From a virus (taxonomy: Duplodnaviria; Caudoviricetes), in IMG/VR virus record IMGVR_UViG_3300027863_000043, positions 1 to 57,924 of that record: a DNA stretch of 57,924 nt, one strand, 5' to 3'. Position numbers and translations under genes: made by a program. The notes beneath the pieces were generated by a model. It ran no database searches and was not told the origin of the DNA. It was given only the letters and a program-made list of their open reading frames with translations. Positions 28,581 through 54,342 of this stretch are shown piece by piece (within the stretch, counting starts at the first letter, position 1; each line of letters begins with the position of its first letter).

Positions 28581-29965
28581 ACAGGCACCCCCTCGTGAAC
28601 GTGGGCGATCCTCGCTTTCAGCGCTTCCAGCAGACGGTCCTGACTACTGCCCTTCTCGTTCAGGGCTCTCATCACGTCCGCATCCACTCCCTCCTCGACC
28701 ACCAAGTGGTGAACGATCACCGTCTCCGTCTGGCCTTGGCGGTGAAGTCGCTTGTTGGCCTGTTGGTACCACTCGAGGTTCCACGTCAACCCGAACCAGA
28801 TAACGTGATTCCCGCCTGCCTGCAGGTTGAGGCCGTACGCCGTGCTGGCCGGATGGGCCAACAGGATGTCAATCTTGCGAGCGTTCCAGTCGTCCACGTC
28901 CGCTGGGCTATGAAGGAATCGAACCTTCAGCCCGGACTTCGCCAACGCCCCTTCAAGGCGTGCCGCGTCGTGCTGAAAGCCGTAAAATACCAACGCCGGC
29001 TTACCGTTCAACGCCTCCACCAGCTCCATGAACGCCTCCACCTTGCACCGATGGATCTCGACGGCGCGGTGCTCCCCGTCGTATACGGCCCCGTTGCACA
29101 GCTGCAGCAGCTTCCCCGTGAGAACTGCGGCACTCCCCGCGTCAATCGTCGCCTCGTCCACCTCAAGCAGCATCTCGCGCTCCAGCTTGGTGTAGGCCGC
29201 TTGCGCTTTGGCGTCCAGGACAACGGGGACTGTCACCGATACCGCCTCCGGCAAATCGAGATAATCCTCGGCCCGCATGCTCACACAGATGTCCCCGATC
29301 AGCTGGCGTATGATCTCGTTGGCGCCCGGCTTCGGCGCGTAGCTGTATACCCGATCCCGGTCTCGTTGGTCCGGCTCAAAGTACCGTTCCCGAAAGCCTC
29401 CGATACGCGTTCCCAACCGTGCGCCCTGGTCCAGCAGATAAATCTGCGCCCAGAGGTCCATCTCTCCGTTCGGCGCTGGCGTCCCGGTCAACTCGACGAT
29501 GCGGTCGATGTGCGGTCTCACCCGGGCAAGCGCCTTAAACCGTTTGGCATCCGGATTCTTGAAACTCGACGACTCGTCCAGAATGACCATGTCGAACGGC
29601 CACGCGTTCCGGTAGTACTCCGTGAGCCACTCGGTATTCTCGCGGTTGATCACGTAGATATCCGCCGGGGTATTCAACGCCCGAATGCGCTTCTGCTGGG
29701 AACCTAGGACCGGCACAATCCGCAGATGCTGCAGGTGGCTCCATTTCTGCGCCTCGCGCGACCATGTGGCTTCGGCCACCTTCTTTGGCGCGATCACCAA
29801 AGCCTTTCGAATGGCGAAACGGTTGTATTTCAGGTCATTCACCGCCGTCAAGGTGATCACCGTCTTTCCTCAACCCAAGCCCATGTCGAGAAACAACCCA
29901 AGGGCGGTATCGGCGATGAGTCGGGAAATCGCGTAGCGCTGATAGGCGTGCGGCATGAACTTCAT
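28577..29965 (-). CDS. SNF2-family helicase with in-frame TGA at 29870-72 inside motif I
   Basis: GAGGAGGTG RBS and MKFMPHAYQ...FLDMGLG*GKTV; DESS, LTGTPAPN, GLNLQ, QANKRLHRQGQ all intact. Confidence 0.88.
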
Positions 29966-33969: not shown

Positions 33970-34752
33970 CTACACGTATTTTGTGGCGGCCGGAAATCGA
34001 GCTACGAATTCTCTCCACATTTGCGGATAGTGGCGTTTGACAAAGGCCCACCTCCCGCGCGACAACGTGCCCTCTGTTGATCCGGCGTAGGCCCCCACCC
34101 GGATTGCCTCGCGGCCACCCGGCCACGCTTTGTCGTATACCGGGTTGTATGGTAGGTCTTCTGACACGATGTAGGCCCACACCTCTTCCGTTCTCCATTG
34201 GGAGACCGGGAGACAGTGCGTGATACCGTCGTAGGCGCACTCGTAGGTCTCGCCTCGCACGCCAACGTTTTTACGTCGGGCGGGGCTCTCCTCGGCTCGC
34301 AAGCCAACAAACGCTAAGTCGCACCCATGACTGAGATTCATGTGCCGGGCCGGATCCTTGATGAGGATGCGCGCCAGCTCTCCTGTGTGAAGCTCGCGCA
34401 TTTGTGGCTTGTTTTGCCACACCCCAACCAGCTCATAGAGGTCAAGCATGCCCATGGGTGGGTCGACCCAGTGCAGATCCAAGTCCCAGGCAGTCGCCGT
34501 TTTTTCGACGAACCGATAGGTATCAGGGAACTCAGCTCCCGAATCGAAGAAGGCGACTTTGATATCTGGTTTTAGGCTACGGACTAAGGCCAAAGTGACG
34601 GTGGAATCCTTTCCGCCACTCCACGATACGTAAGGTTGGCGTGCTTGCCGTAACGCCTGCTGGATGACGCTCAGGCTGTGCGCAAGACGCCGGCAGAAGA
34701 CCGGCATCTTGGCACACAGCAAATAGCGTTCGCGTTCGGCAGAGGGCATCAT
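33970..34752 (-). CDS. cysH: CysH/PAPS-reductase-like PP-loop protein of a type IV-B CRISPR-Cas system
   Basis: 'SWSGGKDS' PP-loop, 'FDSGAEFPDT', 'GLRAEES..R', 'PVSQW..EEVWAYI...LPYNPVYD'; adjacent to csf3. Confidence 0.88.
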   Translation of the reverse strand: MMPSAERERYLLCAKMPVFCRRLAHSLSVIQQALRQARQPYVSWSGGKDSTVTLALVRSLKPDIKVAFFDSGAEFPDTYRFVEKTATAWDLDLHWVDPPMGMLDLYELVGVWQNKPQMRELHTGELARILIKDPARHMNLSHGCDLAFVGLRAEESPARRKNVGVRGETYECAYDGITHCLPVSQWRTEEVWAYIVSEDLPYNPVYDKAWPGGREAIRVGAYAGSTEGTLSRGRWAFVKRHYPQMWREFVARFPAATKYV

Positions 34753-34850
34753 CGATTGCCGCCGCCTTTTTCCGGGCCGCCGCTTCCCCCGCTTTTTGTG
34801 GGGCTAGTTTTGGGTGCGGCGCCTTTGGCGCTCTCACGCTTAATTGCCAC
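34749..34850 (-). CDS. Unannotated 33-aa Lys/Gly/Ser-rich micro-protein MAIKRESAKGAAPKTSPTKSGGSGGPEKGGGNR
   Basis: AAGGGAGGTG RBS with GTG start; stop overlaps the cysH start (ATGA). Confidence 0.6.
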   Translation of the reverse strand: MAIKRESAKGAAPKTSPTKSGGSGGPEKGGGNR

Positions 34851-35517
34851 TGATCGTCACCTCCCTTCGGCACAGCAACCGTTCAGAACCGGGCGGCCAT
34901 TTGCATACGCGCAGGTTAGAGGACTCCCAATAGGGAGGGCGAATGGACGTCACTTCGTCTCCATTTTCGTCCGGTGTCGGACGCATCCAGGATAGGTCCT
35001 CGCTTGTTTCGCCAACCGCCCATCGGCGTATGCGCCCGTACCCCTGACTGCGTTTCTTACCGATGTGGGTGACGTTCTCGAGGAGCTCCCGGATCTCGGT
35101 GGCGTCTCCCACGCAGTACCAGGTCAGACGAGGAATCAGAAAAATCGTGATCGGCATGCGGTATCCCTTGTATGGACCGCTCTTTGAGTTGACCTTGGCC
35201 CTACGCCCCCCAAAGTCCGCATAATCCTCTGCGATCTGGGCGTCGAATCGTTTATGCCAGAAGGTTGTCCGCTCTCCGGCCGTCTCTCCTATCGCGAAGG
35301 AGCATGCGTACCACCAATCGTCGCCAATCTCGACTCTTTTCAAGGGGACAGGGGGGTGGTAGATTTCTTCGGCTATCCCGCTCGTCGTCATTGCCAAACG
35401 CTCTGGCTCGTGCTCGAAGATCCACGACCAAGCGAGGAGACTGTCTAGCGGAAGATACAGATCGGACGTTGCAACACGCCCATCCACCATCCAAGCGTCA
35501 ACGCGCAACGCCTTCAA
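34840..35517 (-). CDS. csf3: Type IV CRISPR Csf3 (Cas5-family RAMP)
   Basis: 'LPLDSLLAW', 'WWYACS', 'SGPYKGYRMP', 'WYCVGD', G-loop 'IGKKRSQGYGRI', 'RPPYW'. Confidence 0.88.
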   Translation of the reverse strand: MKALRVDAWMVDGRVATSDLYLPLDSLLAWSWIFEHEPERLAMTTSGIAEEIYHPPVPLKRVEIGDDWWYACSFAIGETAGERTTFWHKRFDAQIAEDYADFGGRRAKVNSKSGPYKGYRMPITIFLIPRLTWYCVGDATEIRELLENVTHIGKKRSQGYGRIRRWAVGETSEDLSWMRPTPDENGDEVTSIRPPYWESSNLRVCKWPPGSERLLCRREVTISGN

Positions 35518-36529
35518 TGGCCCTCACCAGCCCTTCCCGGTCAGAGTCGAGGTACTCCGTATACCGTTGGAGGTAGGCATCATAAGCCTGCTTAGCTGCC
35601 TCAGCTGTGGGCCCGAGTGTTGGGCGATTTCCGTCGACCTGTAGTAACAGCTCCTCTCGTTCTGATCCAAACGGCGCCCAGGTCGAAACGAGAGAGACGC
35701 GCCCAAAGCCGATCCGGTTCTGTCCGCCGAGGTACGGTGCGGAGGACCACTCATGAAGGGCAGAGGCCAGAGCTCCGAATTCGAGTTCGGTAAACCCCAG
35801 AAGGTCTGTGGATTGATATAGTCGGGCACCGGCCGAGAGGCATTCCATCGTATAGCGCATTTGTTGAGGCTTGGATTCTTCTTTCTTGGAGGATCTAGAT
35901 TTCGGAGTATCGCCTGGATCGCGCCCCGTTTGGTCGCCGTCCTTTACTGCCTCTATGAGTTTTGCGTCTTCGGTCGATTGGACGTAAACGGATAGGTTGC
36001 TGTCCTTTGCATCGTCTTTGCGACTGTGGCTGCGCTCTGTCGTCATCTGCCTCCAAGAGACTGCGTCGAGGTTGCGCAGCGATTCTGGTAGCAGGTGTTG
36101 CACTTCAGCGCAAAGCGGATATGCATCCCCAACGGCCATTTTGCCGGGCAGAAGCTGGTTCCCGACACCGCCTCCGAACACGGACACGAGAGGGAGCGCC
36201 TCGCGTATCCGCAGGGCCTGATCGATATCGATGGACTGATCTCCCCCGATGGAGCCACCAGAGAACAGGAGGTAAAAGATTTTTAGTGGAACCCGGAGGG
36301 TTTCTGACCTACCGAGGGCGTCCAATAGATACTTGGAACCGCAGTCCCGAAGTTGCCCGCGCCAGGCGTTTCCGTGGTACACGAATACTTCCGTCGGCAG
36401 TCCCTCGGGCCCGAGGATGTCTTGGGTGTCCAAGTAGCTGTCAGGACCGTGGCTTGATCCAATATGCGACATGGGCGATAAGAGGGTAAACAGCGTCTCG
36501 ATGCGTCCTCTCAACTTTCCGTTACTCAT
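35498..36529 (-). CDS. csf2: Type IV CRISPR Csf2 (Cas7-family backbone)
   Basis: 'LLSPMSH', 'GNAWRGQLRD', 'LFSGGS', 'PLVSVFGG', 'SRKDD', 'QQMRY..E', G-loop 'LGGQNRIGFG'. Confidence 0.9.
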   Translation of the reverse strand: MSNGKLRGRIETLFTLLSPMSHIGSSHGPDSYLDTQDILGPEGLPTEVFVYHGNAWRGQLRDCGSKYLLDALGRSETLRVPLKIFYLLFSGGSIGGDQSIDIDQALRIREALPLVSVFGGGVGNQLLPGKMAVGDAYPLCAEVQHLLPESLRNLDAVSWRQMTTERSHSRKDDAKDSNLSVYVQSTEDAKLIEAVKDGDQTGRDPGDTPKSRSSKKEESKPQQMRYTMECLSAGARLYQSTDLLGFTELEFGALASALHEWSSAPYLGGQNRIGFGRVSLVSTWAPFGSEREELLLQVDGNRPTLGPTAEAAKQAYDAYLQRYTEYLDSDREGLVRAIEGVAR

Positions 36530-36995
36530 TTTCGTCGTCCTCCCCCTGAATAAGTCCTTTCACTTCGAGCGGTTTCTCCCGTTCCAAGCGGTCGCGCACG
36601 AGAGCAATGATGAGTGCCGTGCGCCCATAGAGCCTTGAAAGCACAACCTTGTCGTCGGCATCCTCTAGGACGGATGTCCAAAACACGCGCCGCCCACGGT
36701 CCTGCACCTGTGTCATTTCTCCGGTAGTTCGGTCGACGGCCATTGTGATGGTGTTCCCGCCATCCCACATCCAACGCGGCTGGAGGGTGGCGCAATGTAA
36801 CTTCGGCTTTAGGCGCTCGATAAAATCTGACAGATTCAGTGCTCGCTTGCTGCTGGACTTGACGGCGGATTCAACGGTACCCCAGATGCCCGGCGTGATT
36901 TTCAGGCGTTTCACGTCACGGCTGCGCCAAATTCCGTATACGAGAAGCGCACCTATTGCGGCGTCTTCATCGCGGGTGTCAAAGCCGTAGAACAC
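36522..36995 (-). CDS. cas11: Type IV-B small subunit (Cas11-like)
   Basis: 157-aa helical protein between csf1 and csf2; AAAGGGG RBS, GTG start. Confidence 0.7.
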   Translation of the reverse strand: MFYGFDTRDEDAAIGALLVYGIWRSRDVKRLKITPGIWGTVESAVKSSSKRALNLSDFIERLKPKLHCATLQPRWMWDGGNTITMAVDRTTGEMTQVQDRGRRVFWTSVLEDADDKVVLSRLYGRTALIIALVRDRLEREKPLEVKGLIQGEDDENE

Positions 36996-50595: not shown

Positions 50596-51846
50596 ATGCC
50601 GAGCATTGAGAAGCGCGGCGCGAATTCCTGGCGTCTCGTGGTAGAAGATGGGTACGACGCCACCGGCAAGCGCGTCCAGCGCAAACGAACGGTGAAGGTA
50701 GACGATCCGGAACTGCTGAAAGGCACCAAGGGGGCGAACCAGCGGCTCCAAGACTATCTGCGTATGGAACTGCTCAAGTTCCAACGTGAAGTCGAGTCGG
50801 GGCAATTTGTTCAGCCGTCCAAGATGACCGTCTCGGAGTTTGTCGCGGTATGGAAGCAGAACCACGCTGATCAAAAGCTCGGGGCCTACACGCGCCGGCA
50901 CTACGTGCAGCTGCTCAACGCTCACGTTCTCCCCGCGTTTGGGCGCATGGACATCGACAAACTAAAGACGATGCACCTGGTGTCATTTTTCTCGCGTCTG
51001 CGTACGCCGGAAGGCCGTAAGGATGGACGGAACAAGCTACTGTCGGCCAGTACGCGAATCAACATTTACAACGCCTTAAAATCCGTCCTGGATGCGGCCC
51101 ATCGTTGGCGTGTGGTATCGGCCAACCCCCTGGATGGCGTGGAACGCCCGAAGGCTGACAAGGCGGAGAAACGAGCCGCGAGAGAAGTAAAGCACGCGTA
51201 CACGCGCACCGAGGCTGAGCAGCTCATTGTTGCACTCATGGACGAACCAGAGCACTGGCGGCTGTATTTCCTCGGCGTGCTGTTGGGCGGATTTCGGCGC
51301 GGCGAAATGCTAGGGGTGGAGTGGCCACAGGTAGACTTCGACCACGGCGGCATCCACGTGGAAAAGCAGATTTCTCTGGACGAATTTGGCCGACCGGTGG
51401 AAGCGGAACTGAAAACCGAAGAATCGCGCGCGTACGTCCCGATGCCGCAATGGTACATGGAGGAGCTCGCCCGATATCGCAAGGCGTGGATTGAGCAGAA
51501 ATGGCACCAGCAGGCCCGGCTCAAGTGGACGGGGGGCGACAAGCAGTATGTCTTTCATCCGGGCACCGGCGAGAAGTTCTATCCGCAAAGCCCGTCGCAT
51601 CAATGGCGCAAATTTCTCACGAGACACGATCTGCCGAGAATCCGTCTCCACGACTTGCGTCACACGACGGCCATGTTGCTGCGCGAGCAGGGAATTGACA
51701 TGAAGACCATCCAAGAGCGACTTCGGCACTCGAGGCTCTCCACCACGGCCGACCTGTACACCCACGAATCGGAGCTGGTGAGCCGCGACGCCGCAGATAA
51801 ACTGGAATCGCTCAATCCGTTCCCAACCCGTTCCCAAAGCCACTGA
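50596..51846 (+). CDS. int: Tyrosine integrase
   Basis: Arm-binding N-domain; 'GFRRGEMLG','LKT..S','RLHDLRHT','RLRHS..STTADLYTH'. Confidence 0.95.
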   Translation: MPSIEKRGANSWRLVVEDGYDATGKRVQRKRTVKVDDPELLKGTKGANQRLQDYLRMELLKFQREVESGQFVQPSKMTVSEFVAVWKQNHADQKLGAYTRRHYVQLLNAHVLPAFGRMDIDKLKTMHLVSFFSRLRTPEGRKDGRNKLLSASTRINIYNALKSVLDAAHRWRVVSANPLDGVERPKADKAEKRAAREVKHAYTRTEAEQLIVALMDEPEHWRLYFLGVLLGGFRRGEMLGVEWPQVDFDHGGIHVEKQISLDEFGRPVEAELKTEESRAYVPMPQWYMEELARYRKAWIEQKWHQQARLKWTGGDKQYVFHPGTGEKFYPQSPSHQWRKFLTRHDLPRIRLHDLRHTTAMLLREQGIDMKTIQERLRHSRLSTTADLYTHESELVSRDAADKLESLNPFPTRSQSH

Positions 51847-52099
51847 CCTACGACGGATGACCCATGAAGGGAAATAGAAAACCCCTTGTATCACAAGGGA
51901 TCTTCGGGTCTTCCTTTGGTGGAGGTAGTCGGATTCGAACCGACGGCCCCCTGCGTGCAAGTTTGGTTGCGTTACGGGAACGGCATGGCCTTTCTTCGCG
52001 CCACCCCTTGATAGACTGGGGGCGGCGCATTTTTATTTGGAACGCGATAGACACGTTTGCATCCCTGTGCACGCAATTCCGTTCCCAATCCGTTCCCAA
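51817..52099. repeat. Integrase arm-type sites: tandem CCGTTCCCAA pairs flanking attP
   Basis: Copies at 51817, 51828, 52079 and 52090; inverted partial GGGAACGG at ~51976. Confidence 0.7.
51917..51961 (-). other. attP core: 3' half of tRNA-Ala(UGC)
   Basis: Reverse complement CTTGCACGCAGGGGGCCGTCGGTTCGAATCCGACTACCTCCACCA: anticodon loop, T-arm, CCA; 5' half absent. Confidence 0.88.
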
Positions 52100-52166: not shown

Positions 52167-52195
52167 TTGACATACTGTCATGACAATGGTATTAT
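52167..52195 (+). promoter_or_regulatory. Strong sigmaA promoter with palindromic operator
   Basis: TTGACA-17 bp-TATTAT with TG extension; TGTCATGACA palindrome at 52176-85. Confidence 0.8.
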
Positions 52196-52234
52196 AGAGA
52201 CATCAAGAGGAGCACACAAACGGAGGCGGTTGAG

Positions 52235-52648
52235 ATGGCGCAGACAAAATGGATTTACGACACAGCTTACATGATGCGGCGGGCGCATGAAATGGCAAAG
52301 GTGGACAGCAATCGGCTGAAGAACTACCGCCAGAAGTTCTCCGCAGCTCTCAAATATCAGTGGGGACAAGCGCGCAAGGCGCTCCGTGCGGCCCTTGAGA
52401 AGGAACAATCCCGTTCCGCTATCCGTAGCGTCCCTGCTTCCGCGGTGCGCCCGGCGACTCCAAAGCAGCTTGAGTATCTCGGTAAGTTGGCCCGCAGGCT
52501 CGACAGGGTCGAGATGTTCGATTCTTTCTCAGGGACCGGCCGTCAGGCCGCAACCGAAATCCGTTCCAAGTCCCGCAACCGCCTGAGCATGGAAGACGCA
52601 AGCTCCCTGATTGACTGGGCTATCGACCTGCTCGACGACGCGATGTGA
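52235..52648 (+). CDS. Accessory protein (137 aa)
   Basis: GGAGG RBS; 'MRRAHEMAK...FSAALKYQW' and 'PATPKQLEYL...AS.LID' short domains. Confidence 0.75.
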   Translation: MAQTKWIYDTAYMMRRAHEMAKVDSNRLKNYRQKFSAALKYQWGQARKALRAALEKEQSRSAIRSVPASAVRPATPKQLEYLGKLARRLDRVEMFDSFSGTGRQAATEIRSKSRNRLSMEDASSLIDWAIDLLDDAM

Positions 52649-52699
52649 GAGGCTACGCCGCAGGTCACACAGGGGACCGGGCGATAGGAGGAAAAAGAA

Positions 52700-52999
52700 G
52701 TGAAACTGAATCTACGGGTCGTCGATGCACCAAGCAACAGCAAACTCGCTCGTCCACCATTTGCCGCTATCTACCGCAACGGTGAGCGCATCGATAACCC
52801 GCGAGGGCTGTGGGGCAAGGCCGGAGGTGTCATTGAGATGCAGCCTGGCGAGACGTGGGAGATCGAGATGGGCGCGGAATTCCGGGTCGGTCGTCACACG
52901 GAACGCGCGTCCGAGCGCATCGCTATAACGCCGGGCCGCCACCAGCTGGTCCACGGGCAGTCGCAGTATTTCATCGTCCAGATCACCGAGATTGCGTAG
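52700..52999 (+). CDS. Accessory protein (99 aa)
   Basis: AGGAGG RBS, GTG start. Confidence 0.7.
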   Translation: MKLNLRVVDAPSNSKLARPPFAAIYRNGERIDNPRGLWGKAGGVIEMQPGETWEIEMGAEFRVGRHTERASERIAITPGRHQLVHGQSQYFIVQITEIA

Positions 53000-53052
53000 T
53001 CGCCCCGCACCCATAGCAAGGCGCTGCAGGTCACGTCGCCATCTAACAGACA

Positions 53053-53113
53053 GGTCGAAACCTAGCCCCACACGGGGCGATGGTCTGCCCGTGATGCGGG
53101 CACTGAGGAGATC
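53053..53113 (+). ncRNA. Type II hammerhead ribozyme
   Basis: GGTC-GAAA-stem III-GTC(cleavage after 53085)-stem I TGCCCG/CGGGCA-CTGAGGA-GATC (closes stem II with GGTC). Confidence 0.8.
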
Positions 53114-53129
53114 GAAGGAGGGAATCACG

Positions 53130-53555
53130 ATGCACAGAATCAACATTACCGACTCCGCGCAGTGGTTTGACGCTGACAAAGCCACGAGTTACGACGGCTA
53201 CGCGCCCGAGGTCCACGGTAAGTTCGTCGACGTCAACACGGGCGACGAGTGGACGACGCACACCCTCTACCACACCAAGATGGATCAATGGGTGCTGGTC
53301 GTGGATAGTGCCTGGGCCAAGTCGCGCACGGCGGAGATCCTCGAACCGTCCGCCGCCTATGCGTGGCTGGCGCGCAACCGACATCACGACGCGATACCGC
53401 CGGAGGTGGACGACGCCAACAGTTTAGACAGCACCGGTTCGACACCCCGGCGAACCGTCCGTATCCCAGACGACCTGTGGGACCGGGCTCAATCGACCGG
53501 GAACGCCTCAGGCCTGATCAACCACCTGTTGACCGACTATTTCGGTCTGCGGTAA
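53130..53555 (+). CDS. Accessory protein with C-terminal ribbon-helix-helix domain
   Basis: AAGGAGG RBS; 'TPRRTVRIPDDLWDRAQ...ASGLINHLLTDYF'. Confidence 0.75.
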   Translation: MHRINITDSAQWFDADKATSYDGYAPEVHGKFVDVNTGDEWTTHTLYHTKMDQWVLVVDSAWAKSRTAEILEPSAAYAWLARNRHHDAIPPEVDDANSLDSTGSTPRRTVRIPDDLWDRAQSTGNASGLINHLLTDYFGLR

Positions 53556-53665
53556 AATGGACCCAATCCGCGCGATGGCGCGGCCCCTTTGAAGGAACAT
53601 GTCCGAGTCTTGCAAGTGCAAGCGACAGCACAATTTCCGCGCTTCGGCGCGGCCCCGGTGAGCGC

Positions 53666-53702
53666 AAAAAAATCCCACTCCATCACGGGGTGGGCTTTTT
53701 TT
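53666..53702. terminator. Bidirectional intrinsic terminator
   Basis: A-tract, CCCACTCC/GGGGTGGG hairpin, T-tract; between convergent genes. Confidence 0.8.
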
Positions 53703-53712
53703 GCTGTCCTGA

Positions 53713-54342
53713 TTACGCGCCTTGCACGGGCGGCACAACAGCACCGGCGGGTGCGCTTGGTGTTGGTGAGCTTGGTGTTGGTGCACTTGGTGTTGGTGCA
53801 CTTGGTGCCGTCGACGTGTCAACCACCGGTACGGTCTGTGCGGGCGTGTTCGCCTGGGACGCGGCCTGACTCAGCTGGTTCGCCGCGGTCACACTCGGGC
53901 TGCTAGACACCTTGGACGCGAGAGACTGGAACTCACCCACTACCCCAAGCACCTGGCTCACACTGACCGTCTTACCGAACAGGTTGTGGACCTCATTCGT
54001 GATGGCCACGGCGACCGCATTCTTGGTCTCCGGTGTCATGGTCTCAACCTTAACGTCCAGGTTGTGAAGGACCGCCGTAGCGGCCTTGTAGATTTCCGAC
54101 TGCTGAACCTGCGACTCGAGGTGCTTGGCCTTCAGTTCTAGTGCCGCGAGCTGCGGCGCGTGCAGGGCTTCACTTGCAAGCGTCTCGGCCTCGGCAACTC
54201 CAGCAGAGACGATGCCCTTGTGGTTCTCGCCCCACTTCACGAGCGGGCGGATAAACTGAAACTTCTTTTCGAGCCCCGCGACGATCAGGGCATACAGCGC
54301 GGTGGCCTCCGGGGACGTGGCGAGGGACTGCCATGCAATCAC
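53713..54342 (-). CDS. Holin-like membrane protein with Pro/Ser/Thr repeat tail
   Basis: N-terminal hydrophobic helix; lysis module; 15-bp repeats at ~53756-53807. Confidence 0.5.
   Translation of the reverse strand: MIAWQSLATSPEATALYALIVAGLEKKFQFIRPLVKWGENHKGIVSAGVAEAETLASEALHAPQLAALELKAKHLESQVQQSEIYKAATAVLHNLDVKVETMTPETKNAVAVAITNEVHNLFGKTVSVSQVLGVVGEFQSLASKVSSSPSVTAANQLSQAASQANTPAQTVPVVDTSTAPSAPTPSAPTPSSPTPSAPAGAVVPPVQGA

Follow-up and report, generated by a model that had tools for sequence, protein, structure and literature searches.

A predicted type II hammerhead ribozyme between two cistrons of a small temperate-phage operon, and the subfamily to which its features assign it

The stretch of DNA analysed here in its full length, hereafter the window, constitutes the complete genome (57,924 bases) of a temperate tailed phage, whose gene set comprises a terminase, a portal, a baseplate protein, a family A DNA polymerase and repressor-like HTH proteins. 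Adjoining the integrase gene and a probable attP lies a three-gene unit on the plus strand (genes A, B and C; Table 1), which is preceded by a sigma-70-like promoter match and closed by a terminator-like hairpin with a T run. The fragment found directly after the integrase gene resembles the 3' half of a tRNA, and ARAGORN reports no full tRNA at that position; the same 45 nt occur exactly in seven stretches from Alicyclobacillus, Alicyclobacillaceae and Bacillota genomes. We regard the fragment as the probable attP core, and its matches, which include Alicyclobacillus tRNA genes, point to a host in the Bacillota, namely Alicyclobacillus. Among sequencing runs, no RNA run is listed as containing the stretch; two hot-spring DNA metagenome runs contain it, in near-identical contigs that do not differ inside 53053-53129 and are therefore uninformative on covariation and on expression. 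A second tyrosine-recombinase gene is present mid-genome (26517-27554, minus strand; Phage_integrase, E 1e-30), and a tRNA-Phe gene (28904-28982, minus strand) is located near it.

Pfam searches relaxed to E<=10 gave no credible match for any of the three genes, and a blastn search of 52200-53600 against the phage collection was negative. Gene A has no Pfam, PHROG or PADLOC match, its PDB matches (E 0.12-0.89) lying at chance level, while gene B has neither a family match nor a PDB match and finds just one near-identical counterpart (99% identity) among 5.8 billion sequences. An earlier reading of the locus, made from the sequence only, had placed a ribbon-helix-helix gene downstream of the motif discussed below, and an Arc-like match in gene C (phrog_6506, E 3.8e-5, residues 102-127) bears this out; gene C has no relatives in the viral or genome contigs, its protein search retrieved identical or near-identical sequences only, and it has no PDB match. 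Other ways of parsing the interval were discarded: a longer ORF that would start at TTG 52992 and enclose the motif was rejected in view of the strong Shine-Dalgarno (SD) sequence with its ATG at 53130 and of the relatives, which are arranged in the same way, and the minus-strand ORFs 52712-53185 and 53043-53387 found no support.

Table 1. Positions of the predicted ribozyme, its operon and the other phage features discussed in the text
Feature	Position	Strand	Description or basis
Type II hammerhead ribozyme, entire motif (predicted)	53053-53113	+	Core, helices, descriptor, fold, model scores
Stem II, 5' strand GGUC	53053-53056	+	Partner is 53110-53113; helix covaries among relatives
Core GAAA (G12 A13 A14 A15.1)	53057-53060	+	Invariant, 79/79 relatives
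Stem III hairpin	53060-53084	+	A-U, C-G, C-G; internal loop UA/GAU; 5-bp GCCCC/GGGGC; ACAC loop
Predicted cleavage site, after C53085 (C17), leaving 5'-OH on U53086	53085-53086	+	Position from hammerhead consensus
Stem I hairpin UGCCCG-UGAUG-CGGGCA	53086-53102	+	Loop UGAUG matches family consensus U-N-A-N-G
Core CUGAGGA (N7 = G)	53103-53109	+	
Stem II, 3' strand GAUC	53110-53113	+	
A53052, just 5' of stem II	53052	+	Family-specific conserved position; A in 78/79 distinct relatives
Shine-Dalgarno GAAGGAGGG	53114-53122	+	Begins right after stem II
AUCACG, candidate pseudoknot strand	53124-53129	+	Complement of CGUGAU 53090-53095
Sigma-70-like promoter match	52167-52195	+	TTGACA-17-TATTAT, TG before -10, 11/12; consensus scan only
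Gene A	52235-52648	+	137 aa; ORF call
Gene B	52700-52999	+	99 aa; GTG start behind AGGAGG; orphan
Gene C	53130-53555	+	141 aa; C-terminal Arc-like ribbon-helix-helix match, otherwise orphan
Terminator-like hairpin and T run	53674-53703	+	Closes the unit; consensus scan only
Integrase gene	50596-51846		
tRNA 3' half, 45 nt (T arm, acceptor, CCA)	51915-51959		tRNA reads on -; directly after integrase; probable attP core
Csf1	36953-37675	-	E 8e-31
Csf2/Cas7	35498-36529	-	E 3e-61
Csf3/Cas5	34840-35517	-	E 2e-46
PAPS-reductase/cysH-like gene	33970-34752	-	Adjoins csf genes

The interval between genes B and C carries the hammerhead core CUGANGA/GAAA/UH, complete and in the correct order, with U53084-C53085 as the cleavage dinucleotide and helices of 6 bp (stem I), 4 bp (stem II) and 3+5 bp (stem III). 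Stem II, formed by GGUC and GAUC, pairs as G-C, A-U, U-G and C-G, and its one G-U pair sets it apart from the viral relatives described below. The standard pairs adjacent to the core, which constitute the acceptance rule in the methods of PMC3088659, are all present, i.e. A53060-U53084 (A15.1-U16.1), G53110-C53056 (N10.1-N11.1) and U53086-A53102 (N1.1-N2.1). Stems I and III are capped by loops whereas stem II is open, which corresponds to the type II topology, as does the full-length Rfam alignment (model positions 1-66). Re-reading 52800-53400 reproduced every element coordinate of the sequence-only reading, and its central claim, that an entire type II hammerhead immediately precedes a ribosome-binding site, holds as regards the core, the three helices, and GAAGGAGGG and ATG 53130 following the motif, with the descriptor and both covariance models described below in agreement. 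On these sequence features we consider it very probable that 53053-53113 on the plus strand is a hammerhead with the predicted activity.

When both strands of the window were scanned with a descriptor that demands the core without mismatch, the three pairs adjoining it, and at least 4, 3 and 3 bp in stems I, II and III, respectively, a single site was returned, the hammerhead at 53053-53113. The same descriptor gave 12 loose matches in 2000 dinucleotide-preserving shuffles, none of which equalled the real site (stem I at least 6, stem II at least 4, stem III at least 3 bp).

Relatives were sought in IMG/VR with a pattern comprising stem I and the CUGANGA box, which yielded 33 sites in 28 viral loci (L002-L029), stem I being identical to that of the window in these 33 sites. 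Features that the pattern had not asked for came along in all of them: upstream, GAAA together with a stem III hairpin that terminates in GUC was found in 33/33, as was a downstream strand closing stem II, and the 5' strand of stem II before GAAA reads GRYC in 32 sites and ACCC in the remaining one. Stem II itself occurs among these sites in the compensatory variants GGUC/GACC, GGCC/GGCC, GACC/GGUC, GAUC/GAUC and AGCC/GGCU. A covariance model (R1) built from 30 distinct pattern-selected sites (alignment A1, MAFFT) assigns 59.1 bits to the hammerhead site in the window, where the next best position reaches 13.5, and reports 81 hammerheads (79 distinct) in the 28 loci, with up to nine per locus. 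As a guard against circularity, a second model (R2) was trained on 42 viral hammerheads lying outside the search pattern, and it gives 51.7 bits over the full length of the window motif against 13 for the next best position, with an independence that is partial given that its training sites had been found with R1. For both models we rely on bit scores, the E-values stemming from a shortened calibration.

All three stems covary across the 79 distinct relatives. In the corresponding alignment, which is biased towards the model to which it was fitted, 98.2% of the cells are paired and 13 of the 15 pairs show compensatory changes, values that none of 500 shuffles attains; sliding the partner columns lowers pairing to 26-44%. 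The MAFFT alignment A1, in which stem I is fixed by the search pattern, shows compensatory changes in 6 of the 15 pairs and, for stems II and III, leads to the same conclusion. In the four relatives with the stem III subtype described below, the distal helix of that stem also covaries (GCCCC/GGGGC versus GGGGGCC/GGCCCCC). This covariation holds at the level of the family and not of the exact locus in the window, for whose own copy no orthologous locus was found in the phage collection, in viral and genome contigs or by protein searches. At least 120 bacterial and archaeal genome stretches, from many phyla, match the subfamily pattern. On these sequence grounds we assign the window motif to a large subfamily in phages and prophages, which is characterized by an open stem II of 4 bp, a stem I of 6 bp and a 5-nt U-N-A-N-G loop.

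The resemblance extends to positions outside the catalytic core. An A immediately precedes stem II on its 5' side in 78 of the 79 relatives, as it does in the window, and loop I is 5 nt long in 61 of the 79, where positions 1, 3 and 5 are occupied by U, A and G in 60, 53 and 52 cases, respectively; the conservation of both the A and the loop also holds among the 49 sites that were not selected by the pattern. The core of the window is one of the less frequent forms, the relatives reading CUGAUGA in 52 cases, CUGACGA in 21 and CUGAGGA in 4. Its stem III, with an internal loop of UA on the 5' side and GAU on the 3' side, belongs to a subtype (CCUAG...GAUGG) that was found at three sites in L023 (1269-1341, 3499-3569 and 4072-4142) and once, in an AAUGG form, in L022 (76-145); because it recurs in these four relatives, the internal loop is to be taken as a recurrent subtype rather than as a defect, and it could be a structured motif in its own right.

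Against this background, the outcome of the search with curated Rfam models requires some care in its interpretation. At the curated gathering cut-offs the whole window has no match. At relaxed thresholds Hammerhead_II (RF02276) is the sole ribozyme match in the window, aligned over its full length to 53053-53120 with 17.9 bits (cut-off 37; E = 0.015, single family, whole record), and a search of the whole window at E<=1 recovers no other ribozyme class. A Thr_leader match at 53664-53805 on the minus strand, in the terminator region, also appears at E<=1 and lies at chance level. The sub-threshold RF02276 match means little when considered alone, because a lenient Hammerhead_II search at E<=10 also matches 11 of 14 control genomes. 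The check proposed with the sequence-only reading, an Infernal search with Rfam hammerhead models, thus gave literally no match at the gathering cut-off; this does not amount to a refutation, because the cut-off under-detects the subfamily, three sites reaching it in the 16 viral loci L002-L017, in which R1 reports 40. In other words, the curated RF02276 model is not sensitive enough for a subfamily in which stem II has 4 bp and loop I has 5 nt (loop I measures about 10 nt in the model consensus), and scans performed at gathering thresholds under-count phage hammerheads, missing the window copy and 37 of 40 related sites.

The low Rfam score and the frequency of sub-threshold matches in control genomes would fit a chance resemblance without ribozyme activity, an explanation which we nonetheless hold to be extremely improbable in the face of the shuffled sequences, which contain no equal match in 2000, the wide separation between the scores of both family models for this site and those of the next best positions, and the extra-core features and placement that the motif has in common with its family.

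The predicted energetics of the RNA depend on the context in which it is folded. For the isolated 65-nt RNA the hammerhead fold is the minimum free energy structure (-26.5 kcal/mol), whereas in longer contexts that include the upstream flank (96-171 nt) an alternative fold, in which CGCCAUC (53036-53042) captures the 3' strand of stem III by base pairing, is better by 2.6-5.1 kcal/mol, and by 3.9-5.1 kcal/mol when the 3' flank is present. In contexts with the upstream flank the hammerhead fold receives a probability of at most 0.01 from a thermodynamic folding model that leaves out tertiary structure and co-transcriptional folding. A competing fold is not unusual in the family, because a penalty of at least 3.9 kcal/mol is also carried by 18 of the 79 relatives. 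The segment involved, 53027-53042 (CAGGUCAC...CGCCAUC), contains a repeat of the ribozyme's GGUC and a complement to the 3' strand of stem III; its competing pairing, as modelled, could be due to chance or could act as a folding trap or regulator.

A distinctive trait of the family is where its members stand with respect to genes. In 65 of the 79 relatives stem II is followed within 45 nt by an SD and the start codon of an ORF encoding 50 aa or more, an arrangement present at 15% of 2025 random positions, and the stop codon of an upstream ORF lies within 60 nt in 72 of the 79, mostly at 10 nt or less, as compared with 34% of random positions. On its 3' side the window follows the family, with an ATG 16 nt after stem II, whereas its 5' side is looser, the stop codon of gene B (52999) lying 53 nt upstream as opposed to about 10 nt in most relatives. 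The sequence-only reading had proposed that self-cleavage separates the regulator mRNA from the genes upstream, and the order stop codon, hammerhead, SD seen across the family agrees with that proposal; we infer the cleavage at the window copy, the protection afforded by terminal hairpins and the effect on expression alike. The placement in the 79 relatives provides quantitative backing for the idea that these ribozymes may process polycistronic phage mRNAs. The cutting of long phage transcripts into gene-length mRNAs was put forward in PMC3088659, and a 2019 review (PMC6765202) makes the same suggestion while stressing that the purpose is still undefined.

The course of events that we envisage begins with a transcript of genes A, B and C that would span the promoter-like site at 52167 to the terminator-like site at 53674. 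Once transcribed, the RNA would fold and cut itself after C53085, between the cistrons. Because of the type II topology, both products would bear terminal hairpins: the upstream one, with genes A and B, would end in the stem III hairpin and a 2',3'-cyclic phosphate, and the downstream one would begin with a 5'-OH placed directly on the stem I hairpin, with no overhang, 12 nt after which would come the SD and then gene C. After the cut, the 4-bp stem II would dissociate and free the region just 5' of the SD, gene C would acquire a short defined leader, and its stability and translation would be uncoupled from those of genes A and B. Taken as a whole, the reading of a functional type II hammerhead that splits the A-B-C operon mRNA appears to us reasonably probable, and a role in intercistronic processing or insulation is one towards which we lean with moderate confidence.

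The sign of the effect on gene C may be the opposite of the one just outlined. The product of the glmS ribozyme in Bacillus is a substrate for 5'-end-dependent decay by RNase J1, and because of this precedent an active ribozyme could lower the expression of gene C, the 5'-OH product being degraded and the regulator kept at a lower level than the products of genes A and B; that the putative host, Alicyclobacillus, is likewise one of the Bacillota lends this scenario some weight. 5'-Terminal stem-loops should, however, hinder 5' exonucleases, and the type II product would start at the stem I hairpin without a single-stranded overhang; moreover, the SD that follows directly in 65 of the 79 relatives looks designed for a translatable downstream cistron. 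We therefore rate lowered expression as unlikely.

A passenger that is or was recently active, has no adaptive role and travels with mobile cassettes (morons), whose boundary it would merely mark, has several observations in its favour: the copy in the window is single as compared with up to nine per locus in relatives, it lies between orphan genes and at an unusual distance from the upstream one, and the subfamily extends over many phyla, with its matches in at least 120 genome stretches. An idle element would nonetheless hardly be expected to keep its core, helices and extra-core positions intact, which speaks for purifying selection, or to hold the same position before the SD as its relatives, so that we consider this explanation distinctly unlikely in comparison with intercistronic processing.

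A further proposal of the sequence-only reading concerned a pseudoknot between the tip of the stem I hairpin and the region preceding the start codon. The part of it that can be read directly is correct, CGTGAT (53090-53095) being the exact reverse complement of ATCACG (53124-53129) over 6 nt; its standing above chance is not, as 171 of 5000 shuffled tails (3.4%) match it. Were loop I (UGAU, extendable to CGUGAU) to pair with AUCACG before the AUG, folding of the ribozyme and initiation at gene C would be coupled in a pseudoknot switch, and PMC3088659 indeed describes pseudoknots that join loop I to the 3' tail as critical in many type II hammerheads. Beyond the exact complementarity, a weak excess of loop-tail complementarity is found across the family (3.20 versus 3.04, with 25 of 1000 permutations as high), yet it disappears when the flanking stem bases are counted (350 and 671 of 1000 permutations), and matches as long or longer also occur in the tails of 6 of 73 other hammerheads. 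Furthermore, for two of its six pairs the pseudoknot would be in competition with the top of stem I, and the pseudoknots described in PMC3088659 involve nucleotides immediately 3' of stem II, where loop I of the window has no pairing partner, its 4-6 bp match being located 10 nt further on. The pattern of conservation points in another direction, for loop positions 2 and 4 vary freely while positions 1, 3 and 5 are conserved, which suggests a tertiary contact of non-Watson-Crick type; similarly, the conserved A 5' of stem II together with the U-N-A-N-G loop suggests a contact other than the canonical pseudoknot. On balance the switch appears to us improbable. If it were true, ribosome loading, temperature or Mg2+ would set the extent of cutting, the cut would in turn set the amount of the Arc-like regulator, and the phage would provide a natural ribozyme-based translational switch in a thermoacidophile.

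The phage also encodes a type IV-B-like module on the minus strand (33970-37675), next to which no array was noticed. The module comprises csf1, csf2 and csf3 and the cysH-like gene. The sequence-only reading had ventured, as a speculation, that cleavage by the hammerhead might generate small RNAs that load the Csf complex. That idea found no support: a distance of 15-19 kb and a change of strand separate the csf genes from the ribozyme, and a single ribozyme would make a single cut, whose 3' product would extend for about 620 nt to the terminator-like site and carry a gene. In addition, a type IV Cas7 was sought in five phage records rich in hammerheads and matched in none, and the subfamily is spread over many phyla; such a role thus strikes us as very improbable.

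A functional analogy to the window copy is an engineered one. RiboJ is a synthetic insulator derived from a satellite-RNA hammerhead of another topology that cuts upstream RNA just 5' of a ribosome-binding site; as in the window, a hammerhead 5' of the RBS confers on the downstream cistron a defined leader, which is an analogy of function and not of membership. Among natural systems, the viral relatives share with the window the position before the SD and, in L023 and L022, the stem III subtype; unlike the window, they usually contain several copies, and the upstream stop codon usually abuts stem II.

With regard to the hammerheads already in print, Perreault et al. (2011, PMC3088659) describe the type II form as common in bacteria, often close to prophage integrases and flanking genes. 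The window conforms to the hammerheads of that account and of RF02276 in its core, its permuted topology, its location near an integrase in a prophage-type genome and its position between genes, and it departs from them in several respects: stem II measures 4 bp where PMC3088659 commonly reports stems as short as 2 bp, there is no pseudoknot immediately 3' of stem II, and the ribozyme is present as a single copy rather than in an array. Three type II hammerheads near phage-like genes of Desulfovibrio vulgaris cleave both in vivo and, during transcription, in vitro according to Olzog et al. (2021, PMC8782182); like the window copy they are of type II and stand beside genes for hypothetical, phage-like and DNA-binding proteins, a likeness by description between different hosts, with cleavage shown for the D. 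vulgaris ribozymes and the window copy known from its sequence.

In the light of these comparisons, the ribozyme of the window looks genuine and is well supported but ordinary, that is, a common and already described kind of phage ribozyme in a typical setting; as a ribozyme it adds little, the occurrence of type II hammerheads in prophages, close to integrases and in intergenic positions, having been published as early as 2011. What sets it apart is its occurrence as one copy before a small regulator gene, which makes it a simple test system for the effect of cleavage on expression. In related phages, by comparison, hammerheads form arrays gene after gene over about 4-7 kb, with nine sites each in L007, L024 and L028 and eight in L023.
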